A stretch of 64,000 nt of DNA, from NCBI GenBank assembly GCA_963776075.1, contig CAVZLG010000010.1, forward strand, positions 104,500 through 168,499, written 5' to 3'. The stretch comes from an uncultured delta proteobacterium (lineage in GTDB: Bacteria > Desulfobacterota > Desulfobulbia > Desulfobulbales > Desulfocapsaceae). Both the position numbers and the translations under genes were made by a program. The notes under the pieces are model-generated. The model saw only the letters and a list, made by a program, of their open reading frames with translations. It did no database searches and was not told the DNA's origin. Of the stretch, positions 9,182 through 52,117 are shown piece by piece. Position 1 is the stretch's first letter; each line of letters starts with the position of its first letter.

Positions 9182-11467
9182 CTATTTTTCTTCAAGATTC
9201 TGGGCAAGATCATTATCAATAACATACATGCAGATCTCTTTGGCTCCCTGCCGGGAATAGTGATACCTGCTCTGCAGGTTCTCTATCATGAAGATGACAT
9301 CATCTCTGATTTTTGAGTCATATGTTCTGAACTCATCCGTATCGAAATCTCTAATTGCCATACGAAAATTTTCATTCTTCAAAAACGGATCCAGCACCTT
9401 CTCTTTAAGATTATAGACATATTTCTGGAACAGTTTCTGAAACAGCGTTGTCTCAACAACGGATAAGCCCTCATGCATTATTTCCTGCGTGAGTGTCGTC
9501 GTTGTATAGGTCTTCTGTACATCGCTCCTGAACAATTCAGCATCTTTCGGGTCGGCCAGGAGCCTTGATTCGATCCTGGCAAACAACTCTTCCGTAATCT
9601 TCAGCTTCTCTCCAGTAAATACACATTTTTCAGTAGTTCCCGGATCAAAATTTACGGCAAACATATAATTTTGGATATCAATGGCAATCTGGTCTTCGTT
9701 ATAGTAGTAGAGCGATTCCTTTACCTCCTGGAGCACTATATAGTTGTACATTTGCAGCAGGGAATCAAGAAAATGCGGTGGAATGACGTCTTTCTCCTGT
9801 TTACAATATTTTCTGAAATATTTTCCGAGCATGGACATATCAATCAGCTTTTTATCACTGGAATATGAAGACAAAAAGTCATTGAAGAGCCGAATAGAGT
9901 CACGACCTGAAAACCCGTGCCAACCATCTTTCTCAGACTCCTTAATAATATGCCGCCGCCGCTTGGCGGTAAATTTTTTCAAATCGCCTTCAGACAGCCA
10001 CCTGGGAATATTACCGGTATATATTTCCATCTTGAGAAGGTGCAGGTTCTTATCACAATATATTTCATATTGTTCTGGGTTGGTTATCCAGTCCAGCATG
10101 GCTTCTGATCCGATCATCAGCCTGGTAGAAATGATAACTCGTGCAAAATTATGGAGAACACGAGGCAGAAAACTCTCCTCTATCTGCTTTCCGAAAATCT
10201 CTCGATAGATCTCAACTTCAGTTTTGATATCAAGTACGTAAGGTATATGTATGTACTCAATTCTATCTGAAAATGCCTGAAGATCCTTCAGCTGTTCCTT
10301 ATCTTCCGGGTTCATCAGGGCAAAGAAGAGAGAATTTACACTTTCCTCAAGTTCCTCGACCTTATGCACTCCCTCACTGATGATGTTGTGCAGTTCCATC
10401 AGCCTTTCAATATTATGGGACTTTATATCCATCAAGGCATAGATACCGTTGTTTGTTCTGGCATAATGCGAGAAGAGATACCGTACCGGCCTTGAATCCG
10501 GAAATAACTGATCGAGATTTCGCTGTATGACCTCATGCTTTAATACCGTCCTTTTTACCGGTTTATCACCTGGGTTAAAGACCGATATACCTTCCCCGAG
10601 TCGTCTCTTGAAGGTGTAGGGGCGAGCATAGACACATTCCATTACCAAATTGATATCATTGTACTTTTCCATCAAGGCGCTGAAGATTGAGCTGCAGATC
10701 GTGCACGGTTTGTCGTGAAATACCCATTCATATTTTTTATCTGTAAAAAATTCCCATTTGAATTTTTCGTCCTCGAAAAGATCATCAAAAAACAACCGCC
10801 TTGAATCACGAGGGATAATAAGAATTGGATTGTCATGACTGGGACAGGGAACATCAAAGTAGGAACCCACATCCTGCTGTTCTTCAGTTTCGGATTGCAG
10901 TTTTTGGCTCGTCCCATCTTTGGTATCTTTGTCAAGCAGCAGACTGATCCTGTCGGCGAGCGTATCAATTTTATGACTATGCGTAGCGGATGGATCTGCC
11001 GGTAACCGCCACACCACCTCGTACCTGAGCCCCTCAGGTGAAACGGTATATTCTTCAAATTTTCGCAGAAGATTATTGAGAAAGGTTGACTTGCCGCTGC
11101 CAGGTGGCCCATCAAAGATATAAACCTTGTTCTGTTGAGCTCCCACCGATAAAGAGTCAACGTGGCGCACCAAGCGGTTGGCAAAAAGTCGATCGGGAAA
11201 AAACGGACGATCAGTCCCCTGGGCGAGCAACTCTAAACAGTCATAGGCAACATAATCTATGGACTCCGGATCATCGGGATATTCATCTACCTCCTCACAT
11301 ATATAGTTGTCTATCATATCAGCGTATAGCTGGTATATATTCCGTATAATCCTGGCTGGATGATCTACAACTTGTTCTAAAAATTCGGAATATTTCAGCA
11401 GCGGCTGCTTTTCCCATTCTTTGTTCTGGTGCTTCAGGTTGTCAAGTGCCCGTGTGATATCACGCAT
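9182..11467 (-). CDS. second, divergent PrkA-family P-loop protein (761 aa)
   Basis: Walker A FDGPPGSGKSTFLNNLL and PrkA-like blocks (CPSHDNPILIIPRD..., GFSGRDSIRLFNDF). The ORF-track start 11680 overlaps spoVR by 180 nt; ATG 11467 (MRDITRAL...) leaves a 31-nt gap. Confidence 0.7.
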   Translation of the reverse strand: MRDITRALDNLKHQNKEWEKQPLLKYSEFLEQVVDHPARIIRNIYQLYADMIDNYICEEVDEYPDDPESIDYVAYDCLELLAQGTDRPFFPDRLFANRLVRHVDSLSVGAQQNKVYIFDGPPGSGKSTFLNNLLRKFEEYTVSPEGLRYEVVWRLPADPSATHSHKIDTLADRISLLLDKDTKDGTSQKLQSETEEQQDVGSYFDVPCPSHDNPILIIPRDSRRLFFDDLFEDEKFKWEFFTDKKYEWVFHDKPCTICSSIFSALMEKYNDINLVMECVYARPYTFKRRLGEGISVFNPGDKPVKRTVLKHEVIQRNLDQLFPDSRPVRYLFSHYARTNNGIYALMDIKSHNIERLMELHNIISEGVHKVEELEESVNSLFFALMNPEDKEQLKDLQAFSDRIEYIHIPYVLDIKTEVEIYREIFGKQIEESFLPRVLHNFARVIISTRLMIGSEAMLDWITNPEQYEIYCDKNLHLLKMEIYTGNIPRWLSEGDLKKFTAKRRRHIIKESEKDGWHGFSGRDSIRLFNDFLSSYSSDKKLIDMSMLGKYFRKYCKQEKDVIPPHFLDSLLQMYNYIVLQEVKESLYYYNEDQIAIDIQNYMFAVNFDPGTTEKCVFTGEKLKITEELFARIESRLLADPKDAELFRSDVQKTYTTTTLTQEIMHEGLSVVETTLFQKLFQKYVYNLKEKVLDPFLKNENFRMAIRDFDTDEFRTYDSKIRDDVIFMIENLQSRYHYSRQGAKEICMYVIDNDLAQNLEEK

Positions 11468-11498
11468 GGGAATACCCCACTTTTTATTCGATCTTCGA

Positions 11499-13133
11499 TC
11501 ATGAATGTTCTTCACGGGACAGTTGTCTGTCACGCATCGTGTAGCGGAATTTTTTCCAGGTGACCTGCTGCCTGGGTGTCTCCTTCTTGTCTTTTCCATC
11601 AGCCCCTGCAGACACTTCCTCCTGGACAGGTTCAGAGGTGTCCAGAATAACCGGTCCATCCCAGAGGTATTCAATTCCAAGCATGGTACCGGCTATATAA
11701 TCCCGTACAAGTGGTTTTCCCTCAAACAGGTGCTTCAGATGCAGATGATTTTCCTTGGTCACCTCAAATTCAATAGACGGAGGATGATAGAGCGATTCCA
11801 GTACCATGTTGCGATAATCTTCTGCCTTTCTGCTTTTCACGTAATACTGCCAAATCATCCGCTGCTCATCAAGCCTCCGCCCAGCTACAAACAACTTGTT
11901 TTCGTCAACAAAATCCTGACTGATGTATTCTGATATCAGCATGGAATCACAATACGTTTTACGTATGTTGAAAATAAAATCATTTCCTTTACATGTACCG
12001 CTATCGAAATTTATTCTTTTTCTCCTGTCCCTGAGACGGTTATAATCGACGCTGATTCGCCCCTTGTCTGCCATGCTTTCAAGAAACGAGAATAACCGCA
12101 TGCCCAGGGCATAGGGATTAAGCCCGACTCGCGGCATTGAGGTTACTTTTGCGTTGACAATGGCAAAATCGATTTCATGACCGTCTATCCGGTCATCGGT
12201 AAGAAATAGTTTTTCATGCCAATAACTTGCCCAGCCTTCATTGAGTATCTTGGTCCGTATCTGAGGCTGGAAATAGAGGGAGGTATTTCTAATCACTTCT
12301 ATTACCGTTCTCATCCAACTGTTTTCTTCCCGGTTTAAAAAACCGGAATTTTCCATTAGAAACTCAAGCAGATCAATACGGTGTGCGGGTTTTCTCCTGG
12401 CCTGGTGTTTTTGCCAGTATGACTCGAATTCAGCATAGCGCACCTTCACTTCATCAAGAAACGATTGTTCTCCACCGGACGTGTCGGCAGCTACCAGGCG
12501 ATTATAATGTTCAATCTCCTTGACATAATCTGCAACCGAAACCTTTATTTCCTCCTGGAGGAATATATCGAAATAATAATCTACCGGGGTAATTGTCTGA
12601 GTCACCCTCAATTGGCTGTCTTTAGACATAACGGAAAAGTAACCCACCAGGTTATCAATGGCTTTTGCGAATTCTATAATATAGTCAACCCAGCGTCCCT
12701 TCTCCGATCGAAGTTGACTGATCAGTCGCTTATCGGAGAGCGCTTTACTGGTAAAATCATACTTCCAGGTATGCTGAAAAAAAAGATTGTTCTGAAAGAA
12801 GTCTATATGCCCGATTACATGATAAAAAATCATAACATTCAGCCAATCCGGATTGTTATCATTATAAAATGATATTGGCGGTCGAGTGTTAATGACTGTT
12901 TCATACGGATTAGTCGGGAATAATTCGTATCTGCCTTTCTCCCTGAGAACCTCAACGTCCTGAACCCAATAGTCATAGAGGGTCGGAATCATCGTTTTTG
13001 GAGATAATTCCAATATATCACGATTCGTTACAATATATTCCAGGGTGTCATTCTGAAAACTGAGCCCCACACTGCGCGCTCTTTCTTTGCACCCCTCCAT
13101 TATTTTTTTTGCATGCTGGCTGATCAGTTCCAT
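11499..13133 (-). CDS. spoVR: SpoVR/YcgB family protein
   Basis: 544 aa; WLNVMIFYHVIGHIDFFQNN, NEGWASYWHEK and conserved position after yeaH. Confidence 0.9.
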   Translation of the reverse strand: MELISQHAKKIMEGCKERARSVGLSFQNDTLEYIVTNRDILELSPKTMIPTLYDYWVQDVEVLREKGRYELFPTNPYETVINTRPPISFYNDNNPDWLNVMIFYHVIGHIDFFQNNLFFQHTWKYDFTSKALSDKRLISQLRSEKGRWVDYIIEFAKAIDNLVGYFSVMSKDSQLRVTQTITPVDYYFDIFLQEEIKVSVADYVKEIEHYNRLVAADTSGGEQSFLDEVKVRYAEFESYWQKHQARRKPAHRIDLLEFLMENSGFLNREENSWMRTVIEVIRNTSLYFQPQIRTKILNEGWASYWHEKLFLTDDRIDGHEIDFAIVNAKVTSMPRVGLNPYALGMRLFSFLESMADKGRISVDYNRLRDRRKRINFDSGTCKGNDFIFNIRKTYCDSMLISEYISQDFVDENKLFVAGRRLDEQRMIWQYYVKSRKAEDYRNMVLESLYHPPSIEFEVTKENHLHLKHLFEGKPLVRDYIAGTMLGIEYLWDGPVILDTSEPVQEEVSAGADGKDKKETPRQQVTWKKFRYTMRDRQLSREEHS

Positions 13134-13149
13134 AGGCTGCCCACTGTTG

Positions 13150-14544
13150 TCATGATATCAGCGCCCTGATGCCCTCAATAAGTCGAGGTTCACCACCATC
13201 CTGCTCAAGCACATCAAGCCTGATCAGATCAGGTTTTTCCTCAAGTAATCCTGACTTCTTAATATAGCGTTCCACGTCACTGCGCCCCGGTATGCCAAAG
13301 TTATTCTCGGCAATCGTGATTCCGATCCGTGCCACATAAAGGAGCATCTTTTTTAGTTCCGATACTGCTTCTACACCGGTAGTATCCCAGTCATCACCGT
13401 CAGTCCCATGAAATACGTAAATATTGTAATCTCTTTGAAGATTCTCCTGTTCAACTATCTGATTTACTAAATGATATGCTGATGCGACCTGGGTACCGCC
13501 GGCCACCTTGGAGTTGTAGTAAATATTGAAGCTCTCAACTTCCTTTGCCTCGGTATCGTGCAGTATGAATCTGGTTTCAACCTGGCTCTCATACTGGTAG
13601 ATAAGCCATGAGTAAATCAGGATATGCTGACTCACCACCATTTCCGTCGGCTTGCCACTCATGGAGCCGGAGTAATCCCTGAGGAAAAAAACAACCGCCT
13701 GAGATTCATAGTCTTTTTCCTTTGACAATATACGATAGATCCTGTCATGAGGTGAAATGATTAATGAATCGGTCTCTATCGGATCACCCTGCCTGATCCG
13801 GCCAAGTCCAATGTTAGATTTAATTATTCGTCTCAAGGTTGCTTTCTTGTCTAATACCTGGCCAAAACCGCGATGAAGATCTGTCAGATCATAGGAATAT
13901 TTTGTCAATGACCTCTTTTTCCCTTTATCTTTTAGGTTCGGAAGCTTGAATTCTTCTGTCAGGACCCTGCCGAGATCATAGGCATTTGATTCTATTTCAT
14001 GACCGCCGCCATCCCCCTGTCCGGCACCACCTTGCCCATTCTGGCTGTCCCTGACAGGCTGCTCGCCAATTACCTCGCCTTCCTCACCATCACCTTGTCC
14101 GCCATACCCCGGATCATCTCCCGTGTCCCCACCTTCGCCTTCCTCCATTATTTCCACCATGCCATGAAGGAATTTTTCTTCTACGGTTGTCGGCACAACA
14201 ACGACACGGCCACTCTGCTTACCACCAGGTTTCACCACCTTGCCAAGCCTTATTTTACGAGGAAAACCATCTTCCTCCCGCTTCTTGTCCCGGGCCATTA
14301 AATCATCGAGTGAACGATTGGATGCAAGCGCAGCTATACCCCTGGCATGGTTGGCAGGCCAGATATCGATATCGCTGTATTCATAGGGGGTCCGGAGTGG
14401 ATCGGTGGGCATCGTTTCCGCAGCATATCGCTCCGCATACTGCTTTTCCGCCTGGTCAATCTCAAGGCGAATCTTTTGATCCTGCTCGGCCGATATACCC
14501 TGTGCTTTGAGGGCCTGGTATTTTCTGCGAAGATTATCTATCAT
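13150..14544 (-). CDS. yeaH: YeaH/DUF444 family protein (vWA-like C-terminus, Gly/Asp-rich linker)
   Basis: 464 aa; typical acidic/Gly-rich insert, then FFLRDYSGSM (vWA MIDAS-like). Sits between prkA and spoVR. Confidence 0.9.
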   Translation of the reverse strand: MIDNLRRKYQALKAQGISAEQDQKIRLEIDQAEKQYAERYAAETMPTDPLRTPYEYSDIDIWPANHARGIAALASNRSLDDLMARDKKREEDGFPRKIRLGKVVKPGGKQSGRVVVVPTTVEEKFLHGMVEIMEEGEGGDTGDDPGYGGQGDGEEGEVIGEQPVRDSQNGQGGAGQGDGGGHEIESNAYDLGRVLTEEFKLPNLKDKGKKRSLTKYSYDLTDLHRGFGQVLDKKATLRRIIKSNIGLGRIRQGDPIETDSLIISPHDRIYRILSKEKDYESQAVVFFLRDYSGSMSGKPTEMVVSQHILIYSWLIYQYESQVETRFILHDTEAKEVESFNIYYNSKVAGGTQVASAYHLVNQIVEQENLQRDYNIYVFHGTDGDDWDTTGVEAVSELKKMLLYVARIGITIAENNFGIPGRSDVERYIKKSGLLEEKPDLIRLDVLEQDGGEPRLIEGIRALIS

Positions 14545-14586
14545 CTCAACCTCTCAGCCTGATGAAAAACCACTGGGGAAACAAAA

Positions 14587-16647
14587 TTATGTTTCATCCA
14601 CCTGGGTACAAAAATACTCTATGGTTTTCTGGGCACAGGTTGTGCAGTAGCCAAGTTTATTCAGCATGGTATCTACCATACGATCGTACAGCTTTTGATT
14701 TTCCTCATTTGTTCTGTTTGCCAGCGCTCCGATAAGACTGCCCGCTCCGGCTATATCGGATTTGAGGCGGACATCAGTGACCGCCTTGACAAGTTCAAGG
14801 TTGTCCATAAAGTCATAATCCGGATTCGTCGATATCTTCTGGCCATAAATTTTACGAATCGAGGTCCTGAAGGTATCCTTTTGTTCTTTTATTTTTAGTC
14901 CGAGGCAATCCTCGACAGAATTGATATAGCGTTCGTCAATTTTCAAGGCCTGTAATTCCCCACTCTGTGGGTTCTTGTACTTCCACATCTTGTCAGGCCC
15001 GAGATTTTCGGCATCAATACCAATGATCATATTGACGTAATTGAGAACATCCTTGCGGATCGCCAGGGGTTCATCCATATAGGCGTTAAACATCTCCGTC
15101 ATAATACGTTCCCGGTATAATCCACGAGCCGTTTTCAGATCATCTAAAAATTTTGCCCGGTCTGTTGTTTCCGGCACATAGTCGAGAATAATTCGTTCAA
15201 GCGTACCAAATACATCGTATGCGAACATACATTGACCTTCATTCGTCTCTGAGCTTTCAAGCATCAACTGCATTGCCCTGCCAAGGTTTCGCTGGCCAAG
15301 ACCTTTTTGTCCAAAACGACTCGTCACGTCACTGTTTTGATTTAATGTGTCGATAACCTCGGAGAGTGTTTTGATTGATTTTTCACCTGCCACCTCTCCA
15401 GCTGCGAGTTTCATGGTTTCAATGGGTGTCAGTTTCTCAGAGCGTGGCAACCTCGTCAATGCCACCCCAACAGAGGCTGCGTAATTGAGGTTCGGGTCCT
15501 GGTGCAGCGTCTCTCCGGTGAGGGTTGTTTTGGTTTCGGCTCCAATTGCATACGATGTCAGCTGGCTCTGCAACCGGTAATCGGTATTGTGGGAGACATA
15601 ACAGATGCGACAACGATCTATGATCGGCGCCTCCTCTTTCTCAGCCAGGAATCTGTTGAACTCTGCATTATTACTGGTGGCGACAATAAGGGTGTCAATG
15701 GGCCACTTGTAACCGTCAATTTCAATGGTTCGGTTCTGGATAATGCCGAGATATACCTGGACAAGATCCTTTTTGTTTTTATAAATTTCGTCACTGAAAT
15801 GGATTCCTCCACCCGCCACACGAGCCAGAGCACCTCGGCGAAGGTCAAAGCGGTATGGGTTGTTTGTATCGGTGATATGCAGCAGGCGCTGAATCGATTC
15901 CTCGCCAAGTAAATCAACCGCCGACGAAGTAATCTTGTCCTTTGCCGGATATTTGCCGGTAACAGTACCGAGACTCTCGGTGAGGGGTACCGGAACTATC
16001 TCGATGAATTTCAACATATCATCGAGCTTCCCGCCAGTGTACTCCCTGATATCATTCCAGATATATGCAGAGCATGCCCCCAGCGGGCGATAATTCTGCC
16101 ACCACTCATTTATGATTGTTTCAGACAGCCGATAGCGCCGTGCCAGATGCTTTTTAGAATCCTCTGAAGATTCCAGAAGATTCATTGCCAGTATCATCGG
16201 GTCTTCATAGGTCTGTGATTCAACCACATTGATATTGCCATAATGACCTAAATCAACCAGACCGTTAAACCTGAACGTATAACGCCTGTTTTCCGGACGA
16301 AACAAAAATTGCCGGTACATGCTGCACAGGTACTCAACAAGAAACGTCTTACCGTTACCAGGCTCTCCGACAAGCACAAATGCCATCTCCTGCGATGATC
16401 CGCCCTGCGAGGCATCCTTAACGAATGAAACAAATGAGTTGATTTCGTCATACATGCCGATGATATGCTTCGCACCATCACGAAAGATTCTGTAGTCAAA
16501 GGTGGTTTTTCCGTTAACCAGCACCTTGTCTATCTCTTTGTCAAGAATCATCCGGGTCACTGCCTGGAACGCATTTTCAAAAACACGTTCTCCCTTTTTA
16601 ACGGCAGTTATATGTTCGTGCAGACTCTCTTTCTTTGACTGTGCCAT
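14587..16647 (-). CDS. prkA: PrkA/YeaG serine protein kinase (AAA+ N-domain)
   Basis: Walker A LVGEPGNGKTFLVEYL and PrkA C-terminal domain. Start moved to ATG 16647, preceded by AAGGAGG (ORF-track start 16683). Confidence 0.9.
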   Translation of the reverse strand: MAQSKKESLHEHITAVKKGERVFENAFQAVTRMILDKEIDKVLVNGKTTFDYRIFRDGAKHIIGMYDEINSFVSFVKDASQGGSSQEMAFVLVGEPGNGKTFLVEYLCSMYRQFLFRPENRRYTFRFNGLVDLGHYGNINVVESQTYEDPMILAMNLLESSEDSKKHLARRYRLSETIINEWWQNYRPLGACSAYIWNDIREYTGGKLDDMLKFIEIVPVPLTESLGTVTGKYPAKDKITSSAVDLLGEESIQRLLHITDTNNPYRFDLRRGALARVAGGGIHFSDEIYKNKKDLVQVYLGIIQNRTIEIDGYKWPIDTLIVATSNNAEFNRFLAEKEEAPIIDRCRICYVSHNTDYRLQSQLTSYAIGAETKTTLTGETLHQDPNLNYAASVGVALTRLPRSEKLTPIETMKLAAGEVAGEKSIKTLSEVIDTLNQNSDVTSRFGQKGLGQRNLGRAMQLMLESSETNEGQCMFAYDVFGTLERIILDYVPETTDRAKFLDDLKTARGLYRERIMTEMFNAYMDEPLAIRKDVLNYVNMIIGIDAENLGPDKMWKYKNPQSGELQALKIDERYINSVEDCLGLKIKEQKDTFRTSIRKIYGQKISTNPDYDFMDNLELVKAVTDVRLKSDIAGAGSLIGALANRTNEENQKLYDRMVDTMLNKLGYCTTCAQKTIEYFCTQVDET

Positions 16648-17106
16648 GGTTACCTCCTTTTCGACATCGGATTGAGTCAACAAGGCTCTCCCTAAAAAAT
16701 GGTCACAAAATGGTACTATTGCAAGTTAGGAACGGAAAAAAACGCCCTTATTTCGAGGATTGTTCAACAGTTTTCAACTCTTTATCAAAATCCGATTTCC
16801 TTTGTGACTCCCTGCCCGATAATGCATCATATGCACCTCAGGATCCGCGCAAATACTTGCTGAAGATGATCAGCTCTTAATTGATTTTATGATTAACCTA
16901 TGACCACGAACACCGGCTGGGGGTGAACAGGTTCGAATCATGGTATGGCAAACCATCGTCGAGCAGAACGAAAGGTCGATGTATGAAGAAATTGGAAAAG
17001 GGGAAAGCCACTTCAAAAACCAGTACCTCTATGGCAGCTGTTGTGCCGGTGAAGTGGCTTTTCGATTCAATGGTATCACGTTCCAGAAAACACCTGAACA
17101 CTCACT

Positions 17107-17730
17107 TCAATCGTATTGCATTTTAAACTCTTCAGGAGAAAAGCTTACTGGTACTCCCTCAAATGGTGTCATCCTTGTTTTTCTGCTTGTTTGAGCTTCT
17201 CTCAGGTCCTTTAATACCTCAATGCTTGCCAGCAACCCTTTAGAATATCTTGCCAGCCTTATGGCCATTCCTGCAATCTGGGCCAGAGCATAAACGAAAT
17301 TGACATCACTTAACGTAAACTCCCACGGTTCAGAAGTATAGACACGAAGCGCTCCCATCGTTTTTTGATTTACCTGAATTGGAACTGACAGAATCGAAGC
17401 AATGCCTTCTTTTTCTGCTTCCTCAGGGTATTGCAGTCTGGGATCATTTATGGCATCAGAAATTGCAACAGGACCATCCTCAAGAGACTGGGCGATCGAA
17501 TGCAAAGCGCTGAGTGGCCCCTTATTTAGATATTCATCGCTTAGACCGTATGAAGCGGCAACATTCAGTTCGTCAGTTGTCCGGTTGAGCAGAAACAACG
17601 CACATCCTTTTATATCCAGTGCTGTTTTAATTCCCTCTACCGTCATCAGTGCAACTTCTTCAGGTTCTTTCGAGTGAGAAATTGTATTGGCTACTTTCAG
17701 AAATATTTCGTAGTTCAGTTGCTCTTTCAT
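17107..17730 (-). CDS. stand-alone GAF-domain protein
   Basis: 207 aa with a GAF-like pattern (ALFLLNRTTDELNVAASYGL...ILSVPIQVNQKTMGALRVYT). AAAGGAGG RBS. Confidence 0.8.
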   Translation of the reverse strand: MKEQLNYEIFLKVANTISHSKEPEEVALMTVEGIKTALDIKGCALFLLNRTTDELNVAASYGLSDEYLNKGPLSALHSIAQSLEDGPVAISDAINDPRLQYPEEAEKEGIASILSVPIQVNQKTMGALRVYTSEPWEFTLSDVNFVYALAQIAGMAIRLARYSKGLLASIEVLKDLREAQTSRKTRMTPFEGVPVSFSPEEFKMQYD

Positions 17731-17842: not shown

Positions 17843-17945
17843 CATAAAAAGCCGAACTGCCTTCTTCTGAGGCAGCTCGGCTTTCTCTAGAGACCCGTGG
17901 CTTTCCGTCCCCGCTTTACAGTGGGTTTGGCTCTTGCTCAATGTA
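17843..17945 (-). promoter_or_regulatory. candidate c-di-GMP-I (GEMM-I)-like riboswitch with intrinsic terminator
   Basis: Minus-strand RNA: GAGCCAAACC-CACU-GUAA-AGCGGG-GACGGAAAGCCACGGGUCU..., then AAAGCCGAGCUGCCU-cagaaga-AGGCAGUUCGGCUUUUU. The G-U pair in the stem is valid only on the minus strand. TTGACA (17985-17990) and TAGTAT (17961-17966) lie upstream at 18-nt spacing. Confidence 0.5.
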
Positions 17946-25473: not shown

Positions 25474-26331
25474 TCAAAATGCCTTAAAAAGGGCTCCTGC
25501 GGTGTATGGAGACGTCGCGACGCCGGTCATACGGACATGCTCGGCTGTCGTAAATCCTGTTTTTTTAAGGAGTTCCAACTGATCTCTCACGGAGATCGCA
25601 CCACCTATTCATTGTGACCAGTCATCAAGGCTGTCTGCCACTCCAGGTGGCGGTTCCTGCGTCAGAACAATATCAGCGAACTGCAGATATCCCCCTGGAC
25701 TGAGGACACGACGTATTTCTCTGAATAATTTAAACTTACTGGGTGACAGATTAAAAACACCGTTTGATATCACATAATCAAAGCTGTCCTGATCATAGGG
25801 AAGCGATTCACCTGAAACCTTCTGGACGGTTATTGTCTGATTACCAAATTCTGTAATGAGGGATTGCGCCTTGCCCACCATCTCTTCGGTGAGATCGATA
25901 CCGCACACGCGCCCTCCAGGACCAACCATCCGGCTGGCAACGAGCAGGTCAAACCCGGCACCGCAGCCAATATCGAGGACACTGCCCTGCTCTTTTATCA
26001 CTTCAACAGAAAAGGGATTGCCGACACCGCAAAAGGAATTGAGAGCCTCATCCGGAATCTCGTCAATGATTGCCATATCATAGCCCAGAGCAACAGCACC
26101 CGATTTACCGGTCTGGTAGCGGAAGAGTCCTTCAGCAGACTGAGATACTTTTTGATATTTATTTTTAATCGCATCGCGAATCTGCTGCTGCTCCCCATCA
26201 GTGAAGGCATCATCAACAAGCTGATTTCTTGAAACAATTTTATCTGAAACTATCTGGTTCCGGTCACCGCCGGAACTGTTTTTCGGCGCTCACTTGCCGG
26301 ATTTCAAATCACATGTAAGGTGCGTACTCAT
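25474..26331 (-). CDS. ArsM/UbiE-type SAM-dependent methyltransferase, predicted selenoprotein with two in-frame UGA codons (285 codons)
   Basis: ATG 26331. TGA at 26290-26292 and at 25609-25611, real stop at 25474. SAM motif VLDIGCGAGFD and ArsM-like LGYD..IDEIPDEALNSFCGVGNPF. The C-terminal DDWSQ-U-IGGAISVRDQLELLKKTGF... continues in frame. The ORF track shows only 25609..26076. Confidence 0.7.
25581..25597 (-). promoter_or_regulatory. candidate bacterial SECIS hairpin for the second UGA
   Basis: GATCTC-CGTGA-GAGATC, starting 11 nt after the UGA. The loop resembles that of the first hairpin. Confidence 0.45.
26258..26275 (-). promoter_or_regulatory. candidate bacterial SECIS hairpin for the first UGA
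   Basis: TTCCGG-CGGTGA-CCGGAA, starting 14 nt after the UGA. Confidence 0.45.
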
Positions 26332-26615
26332 GTTTTTCACTCTCTGCTGATGTTCACAAAAAAAAAGTATTACTACTGACTATACCTACGATGTAGGCAT
26401 TCGTAAATACCAGGATAGCTCACCGGTACATCTCATCACCTGATCAGACCCGGACGAATAAATCTCTTCAGCAGTAAAATTTCTAATGAAATACTATGCA
26501 CCTGTCTGCGACTGACGGATAAGGTATTGCAATTTACCACGGATGAGATTATGCAGGGACCTGGAATCTTTAACTACCTGAACAGTATGACAATAACGAT
26601 AGTTGTATATACCTG

Positions 26616-30854: not shown

Positions 30855-31089
30855 TTCTCCTCCATGAACGCTACATTCATCCTGGTCATCCCTTAGCTGG
30901 AAACAAATGAGATTTCTTTATCATTCTTTAAACTGGATCGAACAGGATTATAAAGCATCTGATCCGAATTTAAAGGAACATAATAGTTTTTATCGCAGAT
31001 TTTCAATCTACAACCGTTTCTGAAAGGCACGGCCAATTCCACTGGTTGACATTGATGATACATTGCTATATATCTGAACCTTCATTGAA

Positions 31090-31166
31090 ACGTGCAGGGG
31101 TGGCTATAGCCTGAGATGATACCCGTTGAACCTGACCTGGTTAATGCCAGCGTAGGGAAATGCATC
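31090..31166 (+). promoter_or_regulatory. TPP (THI-box) riboswitch
   Basis: gcaGGGGTGgctatagcCTGAGAtgatACCCgtTGAACCTGAcCTGGtTAATGCCAGCGTAGGGAAatgc matches the THI element core and lies upstream of thiM. Confidence 0.85.
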
Positions 31167-31259
31167 GGTCAGAATTATTTCCTCATTTGACTTACCTGCC
31201 CATCTCGGCCAAAGCTGTTAACATTCCTGGAAATATTAACTCCAGATGAAGAGGGGCTC

Positions 31260-32066
31260 ATGTCTGATATCGCTGACAAAACTGCAGAAAATTTACAGCT
31301 TATCCGTCAGGACAAGCCGTTGATCCACAATATCACCAACTTCGTGGTAATGAACTACACCGCCAATGTTCTGCTGGCAATGGGCGCTTCGCCCGTTATG
31401 GCACACGCCAGGGAAGAGGTTGAGGAGATGGTTTCTTATGCCGGCTCTCTTGTATTAAACATCGGCACGCTCTCCGAAATATGGATAGAGTCCATGATTA
31501 AAGCGGGCAGAAAAGCTACAAAAACTGGAACTCCAATTATTTTTGATCCGGTTGGCTCAGGCGCTACTCATTTCCGAACCAGCACTGCGAAAACCCTGCT
31601 CGATGAAACCGTTGTCAGTATCATTCGGGGCAACAGTTCTGAAATTCTCTCACTTGGAGACCCTGATTCCATGACCAGGGGAGTTGATGCCATGCATACG
31701 GTGGATGATGCCGCCGAGACCAGCTCACAGCTGGCAACAGAACTTGGCACGACCCTGGCAATAACAGGTCCCGTGGATCTCATTACAGATGGTGTACGGG
31801 TCGTTCGTGTTGAAAACGGTGACGCGATGATGCCCTACGTTACCGGAACCGGATGTTCAGCAACAGCAGTAATTGGAGCCTTTGCAGCGGTTGAAAAGAA
31901 CATGGTTGCTGCCGCGGCAGGAGGACTGGCCTTTATCGGCCTTGCCGGTGAAAAAGCGGCAGAAACCAGCCGTGGTCCTGGCAGTTTTATGATTGCACTG
32001 CTCGACGCTCTTTACAACCTGACACCTGAAGAAGTAAAGGCAGGGTGCCGGATCGTCGAGGCGTAA
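31260..32066 (+). CDS. thiM: hydroxyethylthiazole kinase
   Basis: PLIHNITNFVVMNYTANVLLAMGASPVMAHA... Confidence 0.9.
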   Translation: MSDIADKTAENLQLIRQDKPLIHNITNFVVMNYTANVLLAMGASPVMAHAREEVEEMVSYAGSLVLNIGTLSEIWIESMIKAGRKATKTGTPIIFDPVGSGATHFRTSTAKTLLDETVVSIIRGNSSEILSLGDPDSMTRGVDAMHTVDDAAETSSQLATELGTTLAITGPVDLITDGVRVVRVENGDAMMPYVTGTGCSATAVIGAFAAVEKNMVAAAAGGLAFIGLAGEKAAETSRGPGSFMIALLDALYNLTPEEVKAGCRIVEA

Positions 32067-32078
32067 AAGCGTCCATGA

Positions 32079-32216
32079 GCAAAGGGCCCTCATAACGGTG
32101 CTGACGTGAAAAAGACAGGATCCGATGGCATTGCCGTGGTCTCTGCAATCGTTTCAGCACCGTGCCCTGAGACTGCTGCCAGGAATGTAAGCAAGATGCA
32201 TTGCCGTGCTCATTAA
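32079..32216 (+). pseudogene. thiE: remnant of thiamine-phosphate synthase (ThiE) C-terminus, about 45 codons, no start codon
   Basis: Own translation: AKGPHNGADVKKTGSDGIAVVSAIVSAPCPETAARNVSKMHCRAH. Compare the ThiE C-terminus GADG(I/V)(A/S)V(V/I)SAI..A.DP..AA. The frame opens directly after a TGA at 32076. Confidence 0.5.
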
Positions 32217-32229
32217 GGAGATTTTTCTG

Positions 32230-33051
32230 ATGACTGAACAAGACAAACACTATTTCAGAGTATTAACAATTGCAGGATCCGACAGTGGGGGCGGCGCCGG
32301 CATTCAGGCCGATCTTAAAACCATTTCGGCGAACAACTGTTACGGTATGTCTGTTATTACTGCACTGACAGCACAGAACACCGTAGGAGTAACCGGTATA
32401 CATCCGGTTCCTGTCAGCTTTGTTGAAAAACAGCTTGAAGCGGTCCTCACGGATATCGGTACCGACGGTATCAAAATAGGAATGTTGTTCTCTGCTGAGC
32501 TGATTACAACCGTTGCCGAATCGCTTAAAAAGTTCAAATGCAGCAATATCGTACTCGATCCGGTAATGATTGCTCAGAGTGGAGACCCACTCATTGAAGA
32601 CGATGCCGTCAAGGCCCTGAAAACTTCACTGATCCCTATTGCCGATCTTATTACGCCCAATCTTCCCGAAGCCTCTGCCCTGCTTGACCGGGATATCAGG
32701 ACCCGTGATGACCTGGAGCAGGCAGCGATTGATCTCCAGAAACTCGGCTGCACGAATGTTTTAATTAAAGGCGGGCATCTGGAAGAGGGAGAAGACAGCG
32801 ACGACCTGCTTTATCTGGGAAATGAAGCAAGGACGATTACCTTTCCCGTTAAGCGTATCGAGACAAACAACAATCATGGAACCGGCTGTACACTCTCATC
32901 AGCTATCGCCTCAGGGCTTGCCAGGGGGTATACAACAGAGCAGGCGGTGAGAGAGGCCAAAGAATATATAACAGGGGCCATTGCCGCTGGAGCCGCATAC
33001 AAGATAGGCCGTGGCCACGGTCCGGTACATCATTTTTTTCGTTCGTATTGA
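32230..33051 (+). CDS. thiD: hydroxymethylpyrimidine/phosphomethylpyrimidine kinase
   Basis: VLTIAGSDSGGGAGIQADLKT. AAGGAG lies 9 nt upstream of ATG 32230 (ORF-track start 32206). Confidence 0.9.
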   Translation: MTEQDKHYFRVLTIAGSDSGGGAGIQADLKTISANNCYGMSVITALTAQNTVGVTGIHPVPVSFVEKQLEAVLTDIGTDGIKIGMLFSAELITTVAESLKKFKCSNIVLDPVMIAQSGDPLIEDDAVKALKTSLIPIADLITPNLPEASALLDRDIRTRDDLEQAAIDLQKLGCTNVLIKGGHLEEGEDSDDLLYLGNEARTITFPVKRIETNNNHGTGCTLSSAIASGLARGYTTEQAVREAKEYITGAIAAGAAYKIGRGHGPVHHFFRSY

Positions 33052-33099
33052 TCCCGCAAGATCGTGAACCCGGATCGAGGCCAGCCTGGTAGTTTGATT

Positions 33100-33825
33100 A
33101 TGCCATCAGTTATGCTCGACAAGGTGTCTCTTTCCTTTGAAGGGACAACCATATTTGATCAACTATCACTGCAGATAGAAGGCGGCAAGTGCACCTGCAT
33201 CCTCGGACCAAGCGGCTGCGGTAAATCCACCCTCCTGAAGATGATCTCGGGTAATCGTTCAATTAAGTACCAGGGATCGATCCGGATAACTCCCGGGCCT
33301 GCAGATACAAATCTCACCGCCTGGATGAGCCAGAACGATCTGCTTCTTCCCTGGATGAGCTTAGAAGACAACGTGCTGCTTGGAGCAAAGCTTCGCTTTG
33401 AAGTTTCATCTTCTCTGCGCGAAAAAGGAGCCCGACTTCTTGAGGAAGCAGGATTGGGCGCATATAGAAAATCACTGCCATCAGCCCTTTCCGGTGGAAT
33501 GCGGCAGCGGGTTGCACTGCTGCGGACGCTCATGGAAGATCGTCCGGTCCTGCTCATGGACGAGCCGTTTTCCGCACTTGATGCCCTCACCAGGATCAAG
33601 CTGCAGCAGCTGGCAGCCAAACTGACCAAGGGCAAGACCGTACTGCTGGTAACCCATGATCCACTCGAAGCGCTCCGGCTGGGAGACAAAATACTGGTTC
33701 TGGCAGGTACCCCTGCAAGCGTGGCGGCATCCTTCGAACCTGAAGGGAAATCTCCCCGGGATGCAGGCGACAGTGTCGTCAGCGAGCAATATCCGCTGCT
33801 GCTGAAAACACTGATGAAACAATAA
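33100..33825 (+). CDS. ABC transporter ATP-binding protein (NitT/TauT family, ThiZ-like)
   Basis: Walker A GPSGCGKST, signature LSGGMRQR, Walker B LLMDEPFSALD. Start is either 33064 (GTG) or 33100 (ATG). Confidence 0.85.
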   Translation: MPSVMLDKVSLSFEGTTIFDQLSLQIEGGKCTCILGPSGCGKSTLLKMISGNRSIKYQGSIRITPGPADTNLTAWMSQNDLLLPWMSLEDNVLLGAKLRFEVSSSLREKGARLLEEAGLGAYRKSLPSALSGGMRQRVALLRTLMEDRPVLLMDEPFSALDALTRIKLQQLAAKLTKGKTVLLVTHDPLEALRLGDKILVLAGTPASVAASFEPEGKSPRDAGDSVVSEQYPLLLKTLMKQ

Positions 33826-33871
33826 AACATAAAGGAATCGGCGGCTCTATCAAGCGCTCAAAAATGACCAG

Positions 33872-34636
33872 ATGATACTTTTCAGACTCGCGATACTTGG
33901 GGCAGGCTTTACGCTGCTCTGGCAACTGCTCGTCAGTATCACCGGGGCGCCCCACTACATTCTCCCCGGTCCGGGGCCGGTCTGTAACGCCCTGATTAAC
34001 AACTGGTCAACGCTTTTTAACCACCTGCAGATCACTGTTACCGAAATATTAGCCGGCCTTGCGATTGGAACCCTCCTCGGTTGCTCTTGCGCCCTGGCCA
34101 TGTTCCTGTCTCCCCACCTGAAGAGATGGATGCTGCCGGTACTCATTATCAGTCAGGCAATTCCTGTTTTTGCTCTTGCGCCAATACTCGTTCTGTGGTT
34201 CGGATATGGAATGGCCTCCAAGATAGCCATGGCTGTTCTGATCATCTTTTTCCCGGTAGCCTCTTCATTCTACCACGGTTTGCGTAGAACGGAACCCGAC
34301 CTTCTCGAACTTGCCCGGGTTATGGATGCAGGTACTTATGGCGTCATGCGCTTTATTGTGATCCCATCCGCCATACCCGCTTTTGCTGCAGGCCTCAGGG
34401 TTGCTGTGGCCGTTGCACCAATCGGCGCTATCGTCGGTGAATGGGTAGGATCCAGTGCCGGCCTTGGTTACTATATGCTGCACGCGAATGCCCGCATGCA
34501 GATAGACAATATGTTTGCGGCACTGACACTGCTGTCGGTTGCCTCGTTATCCATCTATTTTTCAATAGATTTCCTGTTAAACAAATTAATTTACTGGGAA
34601 ACCCCACAGGAGTTAAATCATGCACGTGGTATGTAA
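33872..34636 (+). CDS. ABC transporter permease (ThiX-like)
   Basis: 254 aa, 6 TM, with an EAA-like loop (ELARVMDAGTYGVMRFIVIPSAIP). Confidence 0.85.
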   Translation: MILFRLAILGAGFTLLWQLLVSITGAPHYILPGPGPVCNALINNWSTLFNHLQITVTEILAGLAIGTLLGCSCALAMFLSPHLKRWMLPVLIISQAIPVFALAPILVLWFGYGMASKIAMAVLIIFFPVASSFYHGLRRTEPDLLELARVMDAGTYGVMRFIVIPSAIPAFAAGLRVAVAVAPIGAIVGEWVGSSAGLGYYMLHANARMQIDNMFAALTLLSVASLSIYFSIDFLLNKLIYWETPQELNHARGM

Positions 34637-35576
34637 AAAAGTTTTGTTATTTTTTCTTTTCTTCTCTGTATCAATGACAGCAACGGCCCTGGCAGAAACC
34701 AAGATGACCGTTCTGCTCGACTGGTTTTTAAACCCCGATCATGCTCCGCTTATAGTGGCCAAGGAGAAGGGCTACTTTAAAGAACAGGGACTTGACGTCA
34801 CCTTTATTGCTCCTGCCAACCCGAATGACCCGCCCAAAATCGTGGCCGCAGGGAAAGCTGACATAGCGGTGTCTTACCAGCACCAGCACCAGATGCAGGT
34901 AGACCAGGGGTTGCCGCTGGTCAGAATAGCCACTGTCGTGGCAACACCACTGAATTCCCTCGTGGTTCTGGCCGACAGCGATATTAAGACCATAGCGGAT
35001 CTCAAGGGCAAGACCATCGGTTACTCCGTCGGGGGCTTTGAAACAGTACTTCTCAAGGTGATGCTCGGAAAAGCGGGGTTACAGCTCTCAGATGTCACGC
35101 TGGTCAATGTGAACTTCTCACTTTCACCATCATTATTTGCCGGCAAGACCGATGCCGTTATTGGGGCGTTTCGAAACTTTGAACTCAACCAGATGGATAT
35201 CGAAAAACGTCCGGGCAGGGCCTTTTATGTCGAAGAATATGGCATCCCGTCATACGACGAGCTGATCCTGGTAGCCAACAAGGACCGGCTTGATGATAAA
35301 AATCTGCGTAAGTTTGTTAATGCACTGGAAGCTGGCGTCCAGTTTCTGCTGAATCATCCTGAAGAAAGCTGGGACCTTTTTGTGAAGGGCGAACGGGCGG
35401 AATTAAACGATGAACTGAACAAACGGGCATGGAGTGATACACTGCCGCGATTTGCCCTCAGGCCCGGCGCACTCGACAAGAACCGCTATAATCGGTTTGC
35501 CCAATTTCTTCTTGAACAGGAGATGGTCAAGTCAGTCCCCCCCCTTGAAAGCTGGGCCGTGGAACTCCCATATTGA
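34620..35576 (+). CDS. NMT1/THI5-like periplasmic substrate-binding protein (ThiY-like pyrimidine precursor binding)
   Basis: Signal peptide, then LDWFLNPDHAPLIVAKEKGYFKEQGLDV. Sits in the TPP-riboswitch operon. Confidence 0.8.
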   Translation: MHVVCKKVLLFFLFFSVSMTATALAETKMTVLLDWFLNPDHAPLIVAKEKGYFKEQGLDVTFIAPANPNDPPKIVAAGKADIAVSYQHQHQMQVDQGLPLVRIATVVATPLNSLVVLADSDIKTIADLKGKTIGYSVGGFETVLLKVMLGKAGLQLSDVTLVNVNFSLSPSLFAGKTDAVIGAFRNFELNQMDIEKRPGRAFYVEEYGIPSYDELILVANKDRLDDKNLRKFVNALEAGVQFLLNHPEESWDLFVKGERAELNDELNKRAWSDTLPRFALRPGALDKNRYNRFAQFLLEQEMVKSVPPLESWAVELPY

Positions 35577-48100: not shown

Positions 48101-48435
48101 GGGAATTCACCTCTCTGGAAAAAAAAGTGATATCTACCCTGTATCTATCATAAAATGTAATCATTTCTGATAGAATGGACAGCGCTGCTCCGTTAAAAGA
48201 CGCCCTTTATTATCACCTCTGAACAGATTTTCACTGACAAGGCTTTGTAAGTAATCTATAAAAATGCTGGGCAGCAACTGGTATTGTACATTTTCTGTTA
48301 AATTTCTGAACGTTAGAATTGTTACTTTATCTGGAAATTTTCTGTTGATGTTTATACACCAGTGTTTATAAACTTGGTGTGGTATTCTATTTTGTCTGGA
48401 CAAATAATTTTCTATGGAAAAAGAGCAGATTGGGT

Positions 48436-50049
48436 ATGGACCGACCTTATTGTATTAAATTAGTACTATTTGATTTTGACGGAACATTAACCTTACCCGG
48501 AGCTATCGATTTTGCTCTCATTCGCCAACGAATTGGTTGTCCCGGCGATATTGCGATACTGGAATTTATCCAAACTCTTTCAGATGAATCGCAGCGCCAG
48601 AAGGCCATCGGTGAAGTTTGTGACCATGAAATGGCTGCAGCTCGTAAAGCAAGGCCCAACCTGGGGGCTGAGAGGTTACTTGTCGAATTAAAAGCACTTG
48701 GAGTAAAAGTAGGTCTGATAAGCCGAAATATCCGGATAGCGATAGAACGCGCGCTGGCTAATTTTGAACACACGCTGATTGAAGACTTCGACCTGGTTAT
48801 CTCACGAGATGATCTCATTGCGCCAAAACCGGAGCCTGATGGGATTACATATGTTTCTGAATATTTTGCCATTCCACCTGAAGAAATTCTGGTGGTGGGC
48901 GATTTTGTCTTTGATATAGAAGCGGGACGCCGCGCCGGGGCTTTGACGGCATTTATAACCAATGGCAATAAGCTGGATATTCCTGAAAAACCGACTTTTG
49001 TTATTCACCAGCTGTCCGAGCTTTTACCACTTGTTCAGATGGGAATTCCACTTCAGGGCGGCAAGCTGCCTCAACACCTGCTGGATATGTTCCTGAATGA
49101 ATTTGAATGGGATGACCCATCAGTACTGAACTGGCCGGGAGTGGGCGAAGATACAGCAGCGGTGGATGTGAAAAAAGAGGACGTTCTCGTTATCACATCA
49201 GATCCGATCACCTTTGCCGCGGCTTCTATCGGCGAATACGCAGTCATTGTTAATGCCAACGATATTGCTACCTCCGGGGGGACTCCCCGCTGGCTGTTAA
49301 CCTCCCTGCTTTTCCCGGTTAATTCCACCGCCTCAGAAATACGTTGTGTGATGACAGAACTGGCTTCTGTTTGTAACCGTTATAATATCACCTTATGTGG
49401 CGGCCACACCGAAATCACCGACGCGGTGATTCGTCCGGTGGTCACCGGTATGATGGCAGGCTGTGTGCAACGAGATCATTTATTAGACAAGAAACAGATG
49501 CGCTCCGGGGATCACATTCTATTGACGAAAGGTGTTGCAATAGAGGGTACTGCCATCATTGCCCGGGACTTCGAAAAACAATTGATAGAATATGGGGTAC
49601 ATGAGGAGACAATTAGAAAAGCCAAAGGTTTTATTTCCAGGATAAGCGTAATTGAAGAAGCACAAATGGCTGCTGCCATGGATGGCGTCAAATCCCTGCA
49701 CGACATCACTGAAGGTGGGTTGGCAACATCCCTGGAGGAGTTCTCATTTGCCGGAGGGTATGGAATAGAAGTACAGGTACCACAGATCCCGATCCTGCAG
49801 GAAACCGAGGCAGTTTGCCTGCCCTTCAATCTCAATCCCCTTGGCTTGATAGGATCGGGAAGCCTGTTGATCTGCTGTCATCCCGATGTTTCGAAGCCGC
49901 TACGGCGCCAACTTTTGTCTGCCGGGATTGACTGTACTCATATTGGTACAGTGACGGGTAAAGGACCCGGGATTGTTGCAATGGATGAGGAAAAGATCGT
50001 ACCCTGGCCTCGTTTTGCTGTAGACGAGATCACCCGCCTGTTTTCATGA
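48436..50049 (+). CDS. fusion protein: HAD-superfamily hydrolase plus PurM/AIR-synthase-related (HypE/ThiL-like) ATP-binding domains
   Basis: HAD motif I LFDFDGTLT and motif IV VVGDFVFDIEAGRRAG. Then GVGEDTAAVDV...ITSDPITF...AVIVNANDIATSGGTP...LCGGHTEIT...DITEGGLATSL (AIRS/AIRS_C pattern). Confidence 0.75.
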   Translation: MDRPYCIKLVLFDFDGTLTLPGAIDFALIRQRIGCPGDIAILEFIQTLSDESQRQKAIGEVCDHEMAAARKARPNLGAERLLVELKALGVKVGLISRNIRIAIERALANFEHTLIEDFDLVISRDDLIAPKPEPDGITYVSEYFAIPPEEILVVGDFVFDIEAGRRAGALTAFITNGNKLDIPEKPTFVIHQLSELLPLVQMGIPLQGGKLPQHLLDMFLNEFEWDDPSVLNWPGVGEDTAAVDVKKEDVLVITSDPITFAAASIGEYAVIVNANDIATSGGTPRWLLTSLLFPVNSTASEIRCVMTELASVCNRYNITLCGGHTEITDAVIRPVVTGMMAGCVQRDHLLDKKQMRSGDHILLTKGVAIEGTAIIARDFEKQLIEYGVHEETIRKAKGFISRISVIEEAQMAAAMDGVKSLHDITEGGLATSLEEFSFAGGYGIEVQVPQIPILQETEAVCLPFNLNPLGLIGSGSLLICCHPDVSKPLRRQLLSAGIDCTHIGTVTGKGPGIVAMDEEKIVPWPRFAVDEITRLFS

Positions 50050-52099: not shown

Positions 52100-52117
52100 C
52101 GGGAAGACAATTAAGAC

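Follow-up and report, generated by a model that had tools for sequence, protein, structure and literature searches.

A probable two-selenocysteine ArsM-like methyltransferase with an N-terminal selenocysteine arm in an uncultured member of the Desulfocapsaceae

Results

A methyltransferase frame crossed by two TGA codons

We examined a 64,000-nucleotide stretch of DNA from an uncultured Desulfocapsaceae bacterium (GenBank assembly GCA_963776075.1, contig CAVZLG010000010.1, positions 104,500 to 168,499; the whole of this stretch is called the window), in which the minus-strand interval 25474..26331 appears to be a complete coding sequence for a 285-residue ArsM-like S-adenosylmethionine (SAM)-dependent methyltransferase with two inferred selenocysteine (Sec) residues, Sec14 and Sec241. 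The assignment draws on the frame itself, Pfam matches, a match to the arsenite methyltransferase CmArsM, and tblastn alignments over residues 1-285. The initial annotation had described a frame of 858 nt, or 286 codons, with two in-frame TGAs, and translation of the single minus-strand frame 26331..25474 gave exactly this: MSTHLTCDLKSGK is followed by a TGA (26292..26290; codon 14; UGA-1), 226 sense codons, a second TGA (25611..25609; codon 241; UGA-2), 44 sense codons and a terminal TGA (25476..25474). The sequence after UGA-1 reads APKNSSGG...DSLDDWSQ up to UGA-2, and IGGAISVRDQ...ALFKAF from there to the terminal codon. As had also been described, the mechanical list of open reading frames (ORFs) contains for this locus the fragment 25609..26076 (155 aa) alone, and in the window no ATG, GTG or TTG (the start definition of the ORF tool) stands in frame between the first TGA and Met86. 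Because the two Sec-like TGAs are read as stops, gene finders reduce the protein to a fragment.

The ATG at 26329..26331 was taken as the start since it lies 13 codons before UGA-1, at a M-x12-U spacing that is nearly constant in 31 loci, most of them with Shine-Dalgarno-like motifs upstream. UGA-1 (26290..26292) lies within the motif C7-D-L-K-S-G-K-U14-A-P-K. The third UGA, at 25474..25476, was assigned as the true stop because it is followed by no predicted hairpin and no conserved sequence; the window protein and its homologues end at a common C-terminal position.

The protein is ArsM-like

Domain and hidden Markov model (HMM) searches were run on the conceptual product with Cys put in at both TGAs. 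Pfam Methyltransf_31, Methyltransf_25 and Methyltransf_11 cover residues 113-247 and identify a class I SAM-dependent methyltransferase; SAM-binding motif I is VLDIGCGAGFD (residues 118-128; 25948..25980, minus strand), in which D120, G122, G124, G126 and D128 are invariant in the homologue alignment. The nearest solved structures were arsenite methyltransferases (CmArsM 4fr0, 4kw7 and 5eg5, E ~5e-26; CrArsM; human AS3MT), and the match extended over CmArsM residues 16-250. UGA-2 (W-S-Q-U-I-G-G-A) falls in the column of the As(III)-binding Cys224 of CmArsM (YGE-C-LGGA vs WSQ-U-IGGA), in agreement with the earlier proposal that the second TGA occupies the position of the conserved catalytic Cys.

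Canonical ArsM and AS3MT proteins (CmArsM 4fr0, CrArsM 5evj, human AS3MT 8xt7) thus have the fold and the catalytic column in common with the window protein, where the Cys is replaced by Sec, but they also possess Cys44, Cys72 and Cys174 and a C-terminal domain of ~120 residues. The four-cysteine signature of ArsM (Cys44, Cys72, Cys174, Cys224) was not found in the window protein. In the alignment Thr74 occupies the column of Cys44 and Gly191 that of Cys174, while Cys72 is only approximated by Cys101 (26029..26031, minus strand), two residues upstream in the same glycine-rich loop (S-F-C-G-V-G-N-P-F, invariant in our alignments A1 and A4); the C-terminal domain is missing. The generic ArsM model NF008823/PRK11873 scored 168.5 bits against a cutoff of 263. 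The initial annotation had called the gene an ArsM-type methyltransferase; the ArsM-like core stood (Pfam, CmArsM), but membership of canonical ArsM did not. Lacking equivalents of Cys44 and Cys174 as well as the C-terminal domain, the protein should not be filed as ArsM, though it probably works in the manner of ArsM-type enzymes; as judged from these alignments, it is ArsM-like rather than a canonical ArsM.

An AlphaFold model of a homologue (P0012; 52% identity) had a confident Rossmann-type core, and the top 13 PDB matches found with Foldseek were all ArsM or AS3MT (TM-score 0.53-0.62); the N-terminal 44 residues of the model were at pLDDT <30. By sequence comparison and by the homologue model, a class I SAM methyltransferase fold with an adjoining As(III)-binding-type domain is present.

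Both TGA codons are conserved

Homologues were sought among 5.8 billion proteins (word-seeded search) and 1.84 billion cluster representatives (exhaustive profile search), and by a locus scan of one genome per species. Most of the best 120 matches from the 5.8-billion collection, the closest at up to 91% identity, were fragments of ~170-220 aa, and 12/12 aligned fragments stopped exactly at ...W[SA]Q, whose last residue precedes UGA-2. In Desulfocapsaceae and Desulfobulbaceae genomes, tblastn alignments spanned residues 1-285, the full-span carriers including the cultured Desulfosediminicola flagellatus IMCC35005 and Desulfopila aestuarii DSM 18488. The locus scan gave 80 loci, nearly every one of which has TGA in the catalytic column; the closest relative (L005, 83% identity) came from an uncultured member of the Desulfocapsaceae. 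When the DNA was checked, both TGAs were kept in relatives of 50-83% identity. A 403-kb contig of a metagenome-assembled genome (MAG) encoding a protein of 71% identity reads MSKELTCDLKTGK-TGA-APPNSSGGDRDQ... and ...WSQ-TGA-ISGAISV, and is syntenic with the window (LysE, arginase, symporter, Na/Ca exchanger, and a thi operon behind a thiamine pyrophosphate (TPP) riboswitch). Besides the catalytic TGA, 31 distinct loci had an N-terminal M-x(~12)-U-[PAK]-[PS] arm; their sources were Desulfobulbales, Nitrospirota, one Deferribacteres MAG and unclassified 'Deltaproteobacteria'.

For both codons, then, an in-frame UGA with conserved coding sequence on either side was found. Coding past WSQ, as the initial annotation had proposed, was upheld: homologues hold the frame on both sides of both TGAs, though database fragments end at WSQ. 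The expectation that homologues would show Cys at both positions was borne out in part. At the catalytic column Cys was present in CmArsM (Cys224) and in six representatives (P0226, P0228, P0246, P0248, P0258, P0262), whereas no Cys form was found at the N-terminal position; for that half of the comparison we relied instead upon conservation of the TGA itself in 31 distinct loci.

These data bear upon two alternatives. The first is that two nonsense mutations have inactivated the methyltransferase and left a pseudogene, or that the sequence contains errors, as might be supposed from the 155-aa fragment that is all that stop-to-stop ORF calling yields. The same TGAs occur in the same columns, with the frame kept, in dozens of independent genomes and metagenomes; the comparative data already contradict this explanation, and we give it next to no weight. 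The second alternative is that the UGAs are read as a standard amino acid (Trp or Cys), or that TGA is a sense codon in the code of this organism. Public gene calls on short contigs do print W at both positions: a few 'full-length' matches of 280-309 aa, on contigs of ~1 kb, have Trp at both TGA columns (GG-W-PPK and WSQ-W-IGGA). The DNA of those contigs is TGA at both sites, however, and translation by table 11 does not yield the deposited protein; Trp stands at the Sec columns in databases because the gene calls on short contigs used a code that reads TGA as Trp (code 4). Homologues without TGA carry Cys, not Trp, at the catalytic column, and a conserved, co-varying hairpin directly follows each UGA (see below). 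Within the window TGA is the stop codon of 16/37 domain-supported ORFs, this gene included, which, together with the conserved C-terminus of the gene, shows that TGA is not a general sense codon here. A standard amino acid at the UGAs is accordingly very improbable.

Apart from this question, Trp-printed versions were noted in L001, L002, P0012-P0018, P0022, P0024, P0028, P0032-P0034, P0040, P0121 and P0124. Some such entries run past the true TGA stop, and the artefact is a handy flag for conserved in-frame TGAs.

Stem-loops following the UGA codons

The hairpins that the initial annotation had placed 11-14 nt after the TGAs are present: GTTCCGG-CGGTGA-CCGGAAC (26276..26257), 13-14 nt 3' of UGA-1, and GATCTC-CGTGA-GAGATC (25597..25581), 11 nt 3' of UGA-2. 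On the basis of sequence and covariation they are read as candidate selenocysteine insertion sequence (SECIS) elements, GUUCCGG-CGGUGA-CCGGAAC (26257..26276, minus strand) and GAUCUC-CGUGA-GAGAUC (25581..25597, minus strand). Bacterial SECIS elements follow the rule of 17-20 nt from the UGA to the apical loop and a G in the first two positions of the loop, and the geometry of both hairpins fits it.

Covariation was assessed in ungapped alignments anchored at the UGA, which were hence not fitted to a structure, with 500 shuffles and slid-register controls. The catalytic hairpin (alignment A2, 40 sequences) formed a 7-pair helix in which 89% of cells were paired and 5/7 pairs had changed on both sides (e.g., A-U 23 / G-C 13; C-G 23 / U-A 15); its covariation score was 0.366 vs 0.208 in shuffled alignments (0/500 reaching it), with every slid register lower. 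The N-terminal hairpin (alignment A3, 31 sequences) had 43 cells changed on both sides vs 20.7 in shuffles, and a score of 0.312 vs 0.169 (again 0/500), with slid registers lower; its core pairs included C-G 11 / U-A 10 (pair 21-32) and G-C 17 / A-U 5. Several of the compensating changes take in synonymous sites: Ile AUC to Val GUC goes with Asp GAU to GAC, as does Ser UCC to Pro CCC with Arg AGA to CGG. The N-terminal stem persists though the peptides encoded by it differ widely (SSGGDRN, NTDGHQL, GESGGRQ, LSGSLPV). By covariation, therefore, a stem-loop lies right after the UGA and has been kept in evolution at both sites.

The sole terminator-like call near the gene, 26255..26278 on the plus strand, is the reverse complement of the first of these hairpins; its T-run corresponds to the A-rich spacer after UGA-1, and no plus-strand gene ends there.

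The N-terminal arm and its translation

The spacing from Met to Sec is nearly constant (13 codons) in the 31 arm loci, and purine-rich Shine-Dalgarno-like motifs stand 6-12 nt before the ATG in most of them. Conserved residues of the arm differ between loci by synonymous codons: Cys is TGT or TGC; Leu is TTG, CTG, CTC or TTA; Gly is GGC, GGT, GGA or GGG. The linker that joins UGA-1 to the conserved helix is 19 to 48 codons long, and the arm is in frame every time. Residues shared with homologues stand upstream of Met86, the only canonical internal start. Each arm Sec comes with a partner Cys. The C-x6-U pair of the initial annotation was conserved in arms of the Desulfobulbales type (C-[DN]-L-K-x-G-x-U), but did not hold for arms of the Nitrospirota type, where the arrangement is U-x8-C (U-P-P-S-G-G-A-G-x-C). 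Members of the window protein's own clade L016, L024, L027, L033, L035 and L038 do not have the arm, which is therefore an accessory module. One apparent Cys version of the arm, 'FCWVP' in P0248, was rejected, as the residue is a genuine TGG Trp in a chance alignment.

Relation to described multi-selenocysteine methyltransferases

The initial annotation mentioned Sec-containing methyltransferases of this type in computational surveys, and such a record exists, both in Table 1 of PMC13188914 and in NCBIfam models. A single-Sec arsenite methyltransferase (UxxG motif, WP_011987699.1) is listed as experimentally verified (PMC13188914, Table 1; PMC9312934). The same table (Haft & Tolstoy 2025) has entries for methyltransferase/UXPK-star with 2 Sec, ArsM/DUF2284 with 2 Sec, ArsM/AhpD with 3 Sec, and MduS (PF13649, CxxU, 2 Sec). 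As listed, the single-Sec UxxG enzyme has its catalytic Sec at the same position as the window protein, and differs in having one Sec and no N-terminal arm. The window protein is unlikely to be MduS; by the description in the table, MduS has CxxU and no UxxG, whereas the window protein has UxxG and no CxxU.

The best NCBIfam matches of the window protein were three curated 'exception' models for ArsM-family multi-selenoproteins, each matched over the methyltransferase core only and all below cutoff: NF041537 (ArsM/AhpD) at 291 bits vs 510, NF047649 (methyltransferase/UXPK-star) at 274 bits vs 460 over profile positions 4-245 of 283, and NF041536 (ArsM/DUF2284) at 252 bits vs 575. A positive control (L079) passed NF047649 with 532 bits; the window protein and the related L011 and L032 passed no model. 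In related loci of a sister clade, with the catalytic context U-[IEM]-GGA-x-PG, the additional Sec is C-terminal, in tails of the form ...E-C-A-P-G-x-A-U-x-P-K-stop, in an AhpD domain (C-D-P-U plus a terminal A-C-x-x-U), or in DUF2284 linkers with repeated G-x-U-P-[ST]-G.

The UXPK-star family (NF047649) resembles the window protein in its ArsM-like core, in the catalytic W-x-x-U-I-G-G-A Sec, and in a second Sec within a glycine-rich C-x5-6-U-x-P-K motif, but there this motif lies in a 34-residue C-terminal tail ending U-x-P-K-stop, whereas the window protein ends ALFKAF and carries the motif at N-terminal residues 7-17. The sub-clades differ as well, the context being UIGGA-[IV]-[SP]-V in the window protein and U-[IEM]-GGA-x-PG in the UXPK-star family. 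The ArsM/AhpD and ArsM/DUF2284 proteins likewise pair a catalytic Sec with further Sec outside the methyltransferase core, but in fused C-terminal AhpD or DUF2284 domains (CxxU or G-x-U-P-S-G tails), and the window protein has no C-terminal domain. The window arm, C7-x6-U14-A-P-K, shows the motif of the C-x5-6-U-x-P-K tail at the opposite end of the protein. Ten N-terminal 45-mers gave no matches in NCBIfam, including the UXPK-star domain model NF047647, so the relation of arm and tail rests on motif resemblance. The N-terminal arm architecture does not appear among curated NCBIfam models or in the 119-family inventory of the 2026 review PMC13188914. The catalytic Sec, and multi-Sec ArsM-like proteins, are already known; set against these models and papers, placing a Sec arm at the N-terminus is a new architecture.

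Four of the ArsM/DUF2284 loci (L066, L068, L072, L075) contained, besides the catalytic TGA, three more in-frame TGAs in a repeated G-x-U-P-[ST]-G-[EQ]-T. These fusions may have up to four Sec per protein, vs the two listed in Table 1 of PMC13188914.

Genetic neighbourhood and other features of the window

A weak sigma-70-like promoter match, TTTACG-17-TATAGT (26379..26407, minus strand), was obtained by consensus scan ~48 nt upstream of the ATG. Its position is compatible with the start of the long ORF, but sigma-70-like sites were no more numerous in the region than in shuffles, and the match is not evidence by itself. In the window and in MAG contigs L003 and L087, LysE comes first, followed by the methyltransferase and by TPR and ECF-sigma genes; L085 and L086 have an FMN-reductase-like gene in the upstream place, oriented divergently. 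This gene (FMN_red/Flavodoxin_2, ~185 aa; L085 2167..2712 and L086 5094..5660, in Desulfopila aestuarii and a Desulfocapsaceae MAG) adjoins the methyltransferase gene, which in both loci is downstream of DUF1538-DUF1538-P-II; this context is not that of the window.

A second selenoprotein candidate was found at 55227..55775 (minus strand), a ResA/TlpA-like thiol-disulfide oxidoreductase with an in-frame TGA at 55544..55542. Its motif FWTTW-U-SSC-RKEMP (UxxC) places U at the first Cys of the WCxxC of ResA 4nmu (E = 2e-24), and the UGA is followed by the hairpin AGGAAGG-AGAUGC-CUUUCCU (z = -2.2); the protein is under all NCBIfam cutoffs (ResA 119 vs 170). This UxxC candidate independently suggests, by its sequence, that the host organism decodes Sec.

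The ORF 48379..50049 was considered as SelD and rejected, its SelD score of 81 bits falling short of the cutoff (125) and lying close to its scores for ThiL and HypE. It encodes a fusion of a HAD-hydrolase and an AIR-synthase-like protein (556 aa), below the ThiL, HypE and SelD cutoffs, and is the first gene of a plus-strand run (48379..52657) continuing with an ABC-like ATPase, an unassigned 244-aa ORF and an ECF-type S component. Elsewhere in the window, a c-di-GMP-I-GGC riboswitch (17867..17940, minus strand; 62 bits, above gathering score) lies upstream of a GAF-domain ORF (17107..17730, minus strand). A TPP riboswitch (31086..31178, plus strand) stands ahead of a gene run (31260..35576, plus strand) for a thiM-like hydroxyethylthiazole kinase, a phosphomethylpyrimidine kinase, an ABC ATPase, a permease and an NMT1/THI5-like binding protein, with the arrangement syntenic in L003 and L087. 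The interval 9182..16683 (minus strand) holds PrkA, DUF444 (YeaH-like), SpoVR and a second PrkA-like gene, where ORFs 9182..11680 and 11499..13133 overlap by ~180 nt as mechanically called. A hydroxylamine reductase (hybrid-cluster protein; 61569..63242, minus strand; 798 bits) fits an anaerobic host of Desulfobulbales type.

Discussion

From the conserved frame, the TGA columns and the covarying stem-loops, we consider that the locus is probably (at roughly 0.85) a genuine, single and intact gene for an ArsM-superfamily methyltransferase of 285 residues with two Sec. Several observations weigh against this reading. The stability of the two hairpins in the window did not exceed that of dinucleotide shuffles (z = -0.76 and -0.17), and a search of the locus with Rfam matched neither a SECIS nor any other family, whether gathering thresholds or E<=10 was applied. 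Rfam captures bacterial SECIS elements poorly, so that its negative result carries no information; with ordinary hairpins and no Rfam match, significance comes from the comparison of homologues only. The local minimum free energy (MFE) after the UGA, ranked against the other codons of the gene, gave median rank fractions of 0.13 and 0.18 (Kolmogorov-Smirnov p 3e-5 and 4e-16, values inflated by overlapping windows); this signal is only moderate, and covariation was relied upon instead. The SECIS proposal in the initial annotation therefore failed as a database match, but found backing in compensatory base-pair changes beyond the shuffle and slide controls at both hairpins. No selA, selB, selC or selD was found in the 64-kb window (no tRNA; 41 ORFs scanned). 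The gene neighbourhood is not conserved and offers no clue to function. The low pLDDT of the arm in the P0012 model came from a 13-sequence alignment, the homologue having W in place of Sec. The arm evolves fast, and counts of synonymous and non-synonymous changes over the first 13 and 30 codons showed no clear purifying selection outside the motif. Finally, no Cys or other sense codon was seen at the Sec14 column in the best 120 matches of a word-seeded arm profile with U changed to C (5.8 billion proteins), nor in the best 150 of the exhaustive profile search (1.84 billion representatives), so that the usual Cys/Sec comparison fails for UGA-1.

The last two points also favour a different account of the 5' end, by which only the catalytic UGA is Sec, the first 13 codons are a leader ORF ending at UGA-1, the hairpin there is regulatory or serves coupling, and the methyltransferase begins at a downstream non-canonical start. 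Sec14 had no Cys counterpart among the homologues searched, both leader and linker change quickly, and gene callers do place downstream GTG or ATG starts in some homologues (P0001, P0006, P0009). Against it, 12/31 loci, namely the window and 11 others, have no in-frame ATG, GTG or TTG in the stretch from UGA-1 to the conserved domain, and the starts available in the other loci are not conserved. Although linkers range over 19-48 codons, leader and domain share a frame in every locus, the U-x-P motif and its partner Cys are conserved around the UGA, and one curated selenoprotein family has C-x5-6-U-x-P-K at its C-terminus as a translated tail. We regard the leader-ORF account as improbable.

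If both UGAs encode Sec, translation would start at ATG 26331, and the stem-loops 11-13 nt past UGA codons 14 and 241 would each recruit SelB with Sec-tRNA(Sec), with Sec inserted at both sites as conservation and covariation suggest; two independent SelB/SECIS recoding events would then yield the 285-residue enzyme. By alignment, Sec241 would replace the metalloid-binding/catalytic Cys224 of ArsM. Sec14 and Cys7 would be carried on an N-terminal segment of ~40 residues, for which the AlphaFold model of the homologue shows no confident structure. This arm might swing into the active site, there to provide a second chalcogen ligand or a resolving selenenylsulfide pair, and Cys7/Sec14 may stand in for the missing Cys44 and Cys174, in parallel with the C-x5-6-U-x-P-K or CxxU tails of the sister families. 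We put forward this role of Cys7/Sec14, as ligands or as a resolving redox pair, tentatively and at less than even odds. The substrate could be arsenite or some other soft metalloid such as Se, Te or Sb.

Mammalian thioredoxin reductase carries a flexible terminal Gly-Cys-Sec-Gly arm at its C-terminus. The window arm can be likened to it as a flexible Cys/Sec peptide that might shuttle between a buried centre and the substrate, by analogy and not homology: fold and chemistry are unrelated, and the window arm is N-terminal with C-x6-U spacing. A broader conjecture, likewise at less than even odds, is that the M-x12-U-x-P arm is an obligate-Sec module, the N-terminal equivalent of the UXPK-star and CxxU tails. 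ArsM-like enzymes would then have acquired a movable Sec 'swinging arm' at one end or the other, and at the Sec active site it might bind a soft metalloid, deliver it or release it by reduction.

This lineage is systematically mis-called in public databases, either as fragments ending before UGA-2 or with Trp wrongly printed for Sec. One such fragment is the RefSeq entry for Desulfopila aestuarii, WP_073614689.1, annotated as a 213-aa 'methyltransferase domain-containing protein'; a profile with the N-terminal arm included would allow these entries to be corrected. Since cultured carriers exist (D. flagellatus IMCC35005 and D. aestuarii DSM 18488), incorporation of Sec and function are directly testable. 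The N-terminal arm architecture is widespread, and nothing known about selenoproteins is overturned by it. The N-terminus is a third placement of an accessory Sec/Cys peptide beside a Sec active site in ArsM-like enzymes, which lends weight to the view that a second, mobile chalcogen pair is required by ArsM-like Sec enzymes; the apparent absence of Cys versions suggests a chemistry beyond the reach of sulfur.

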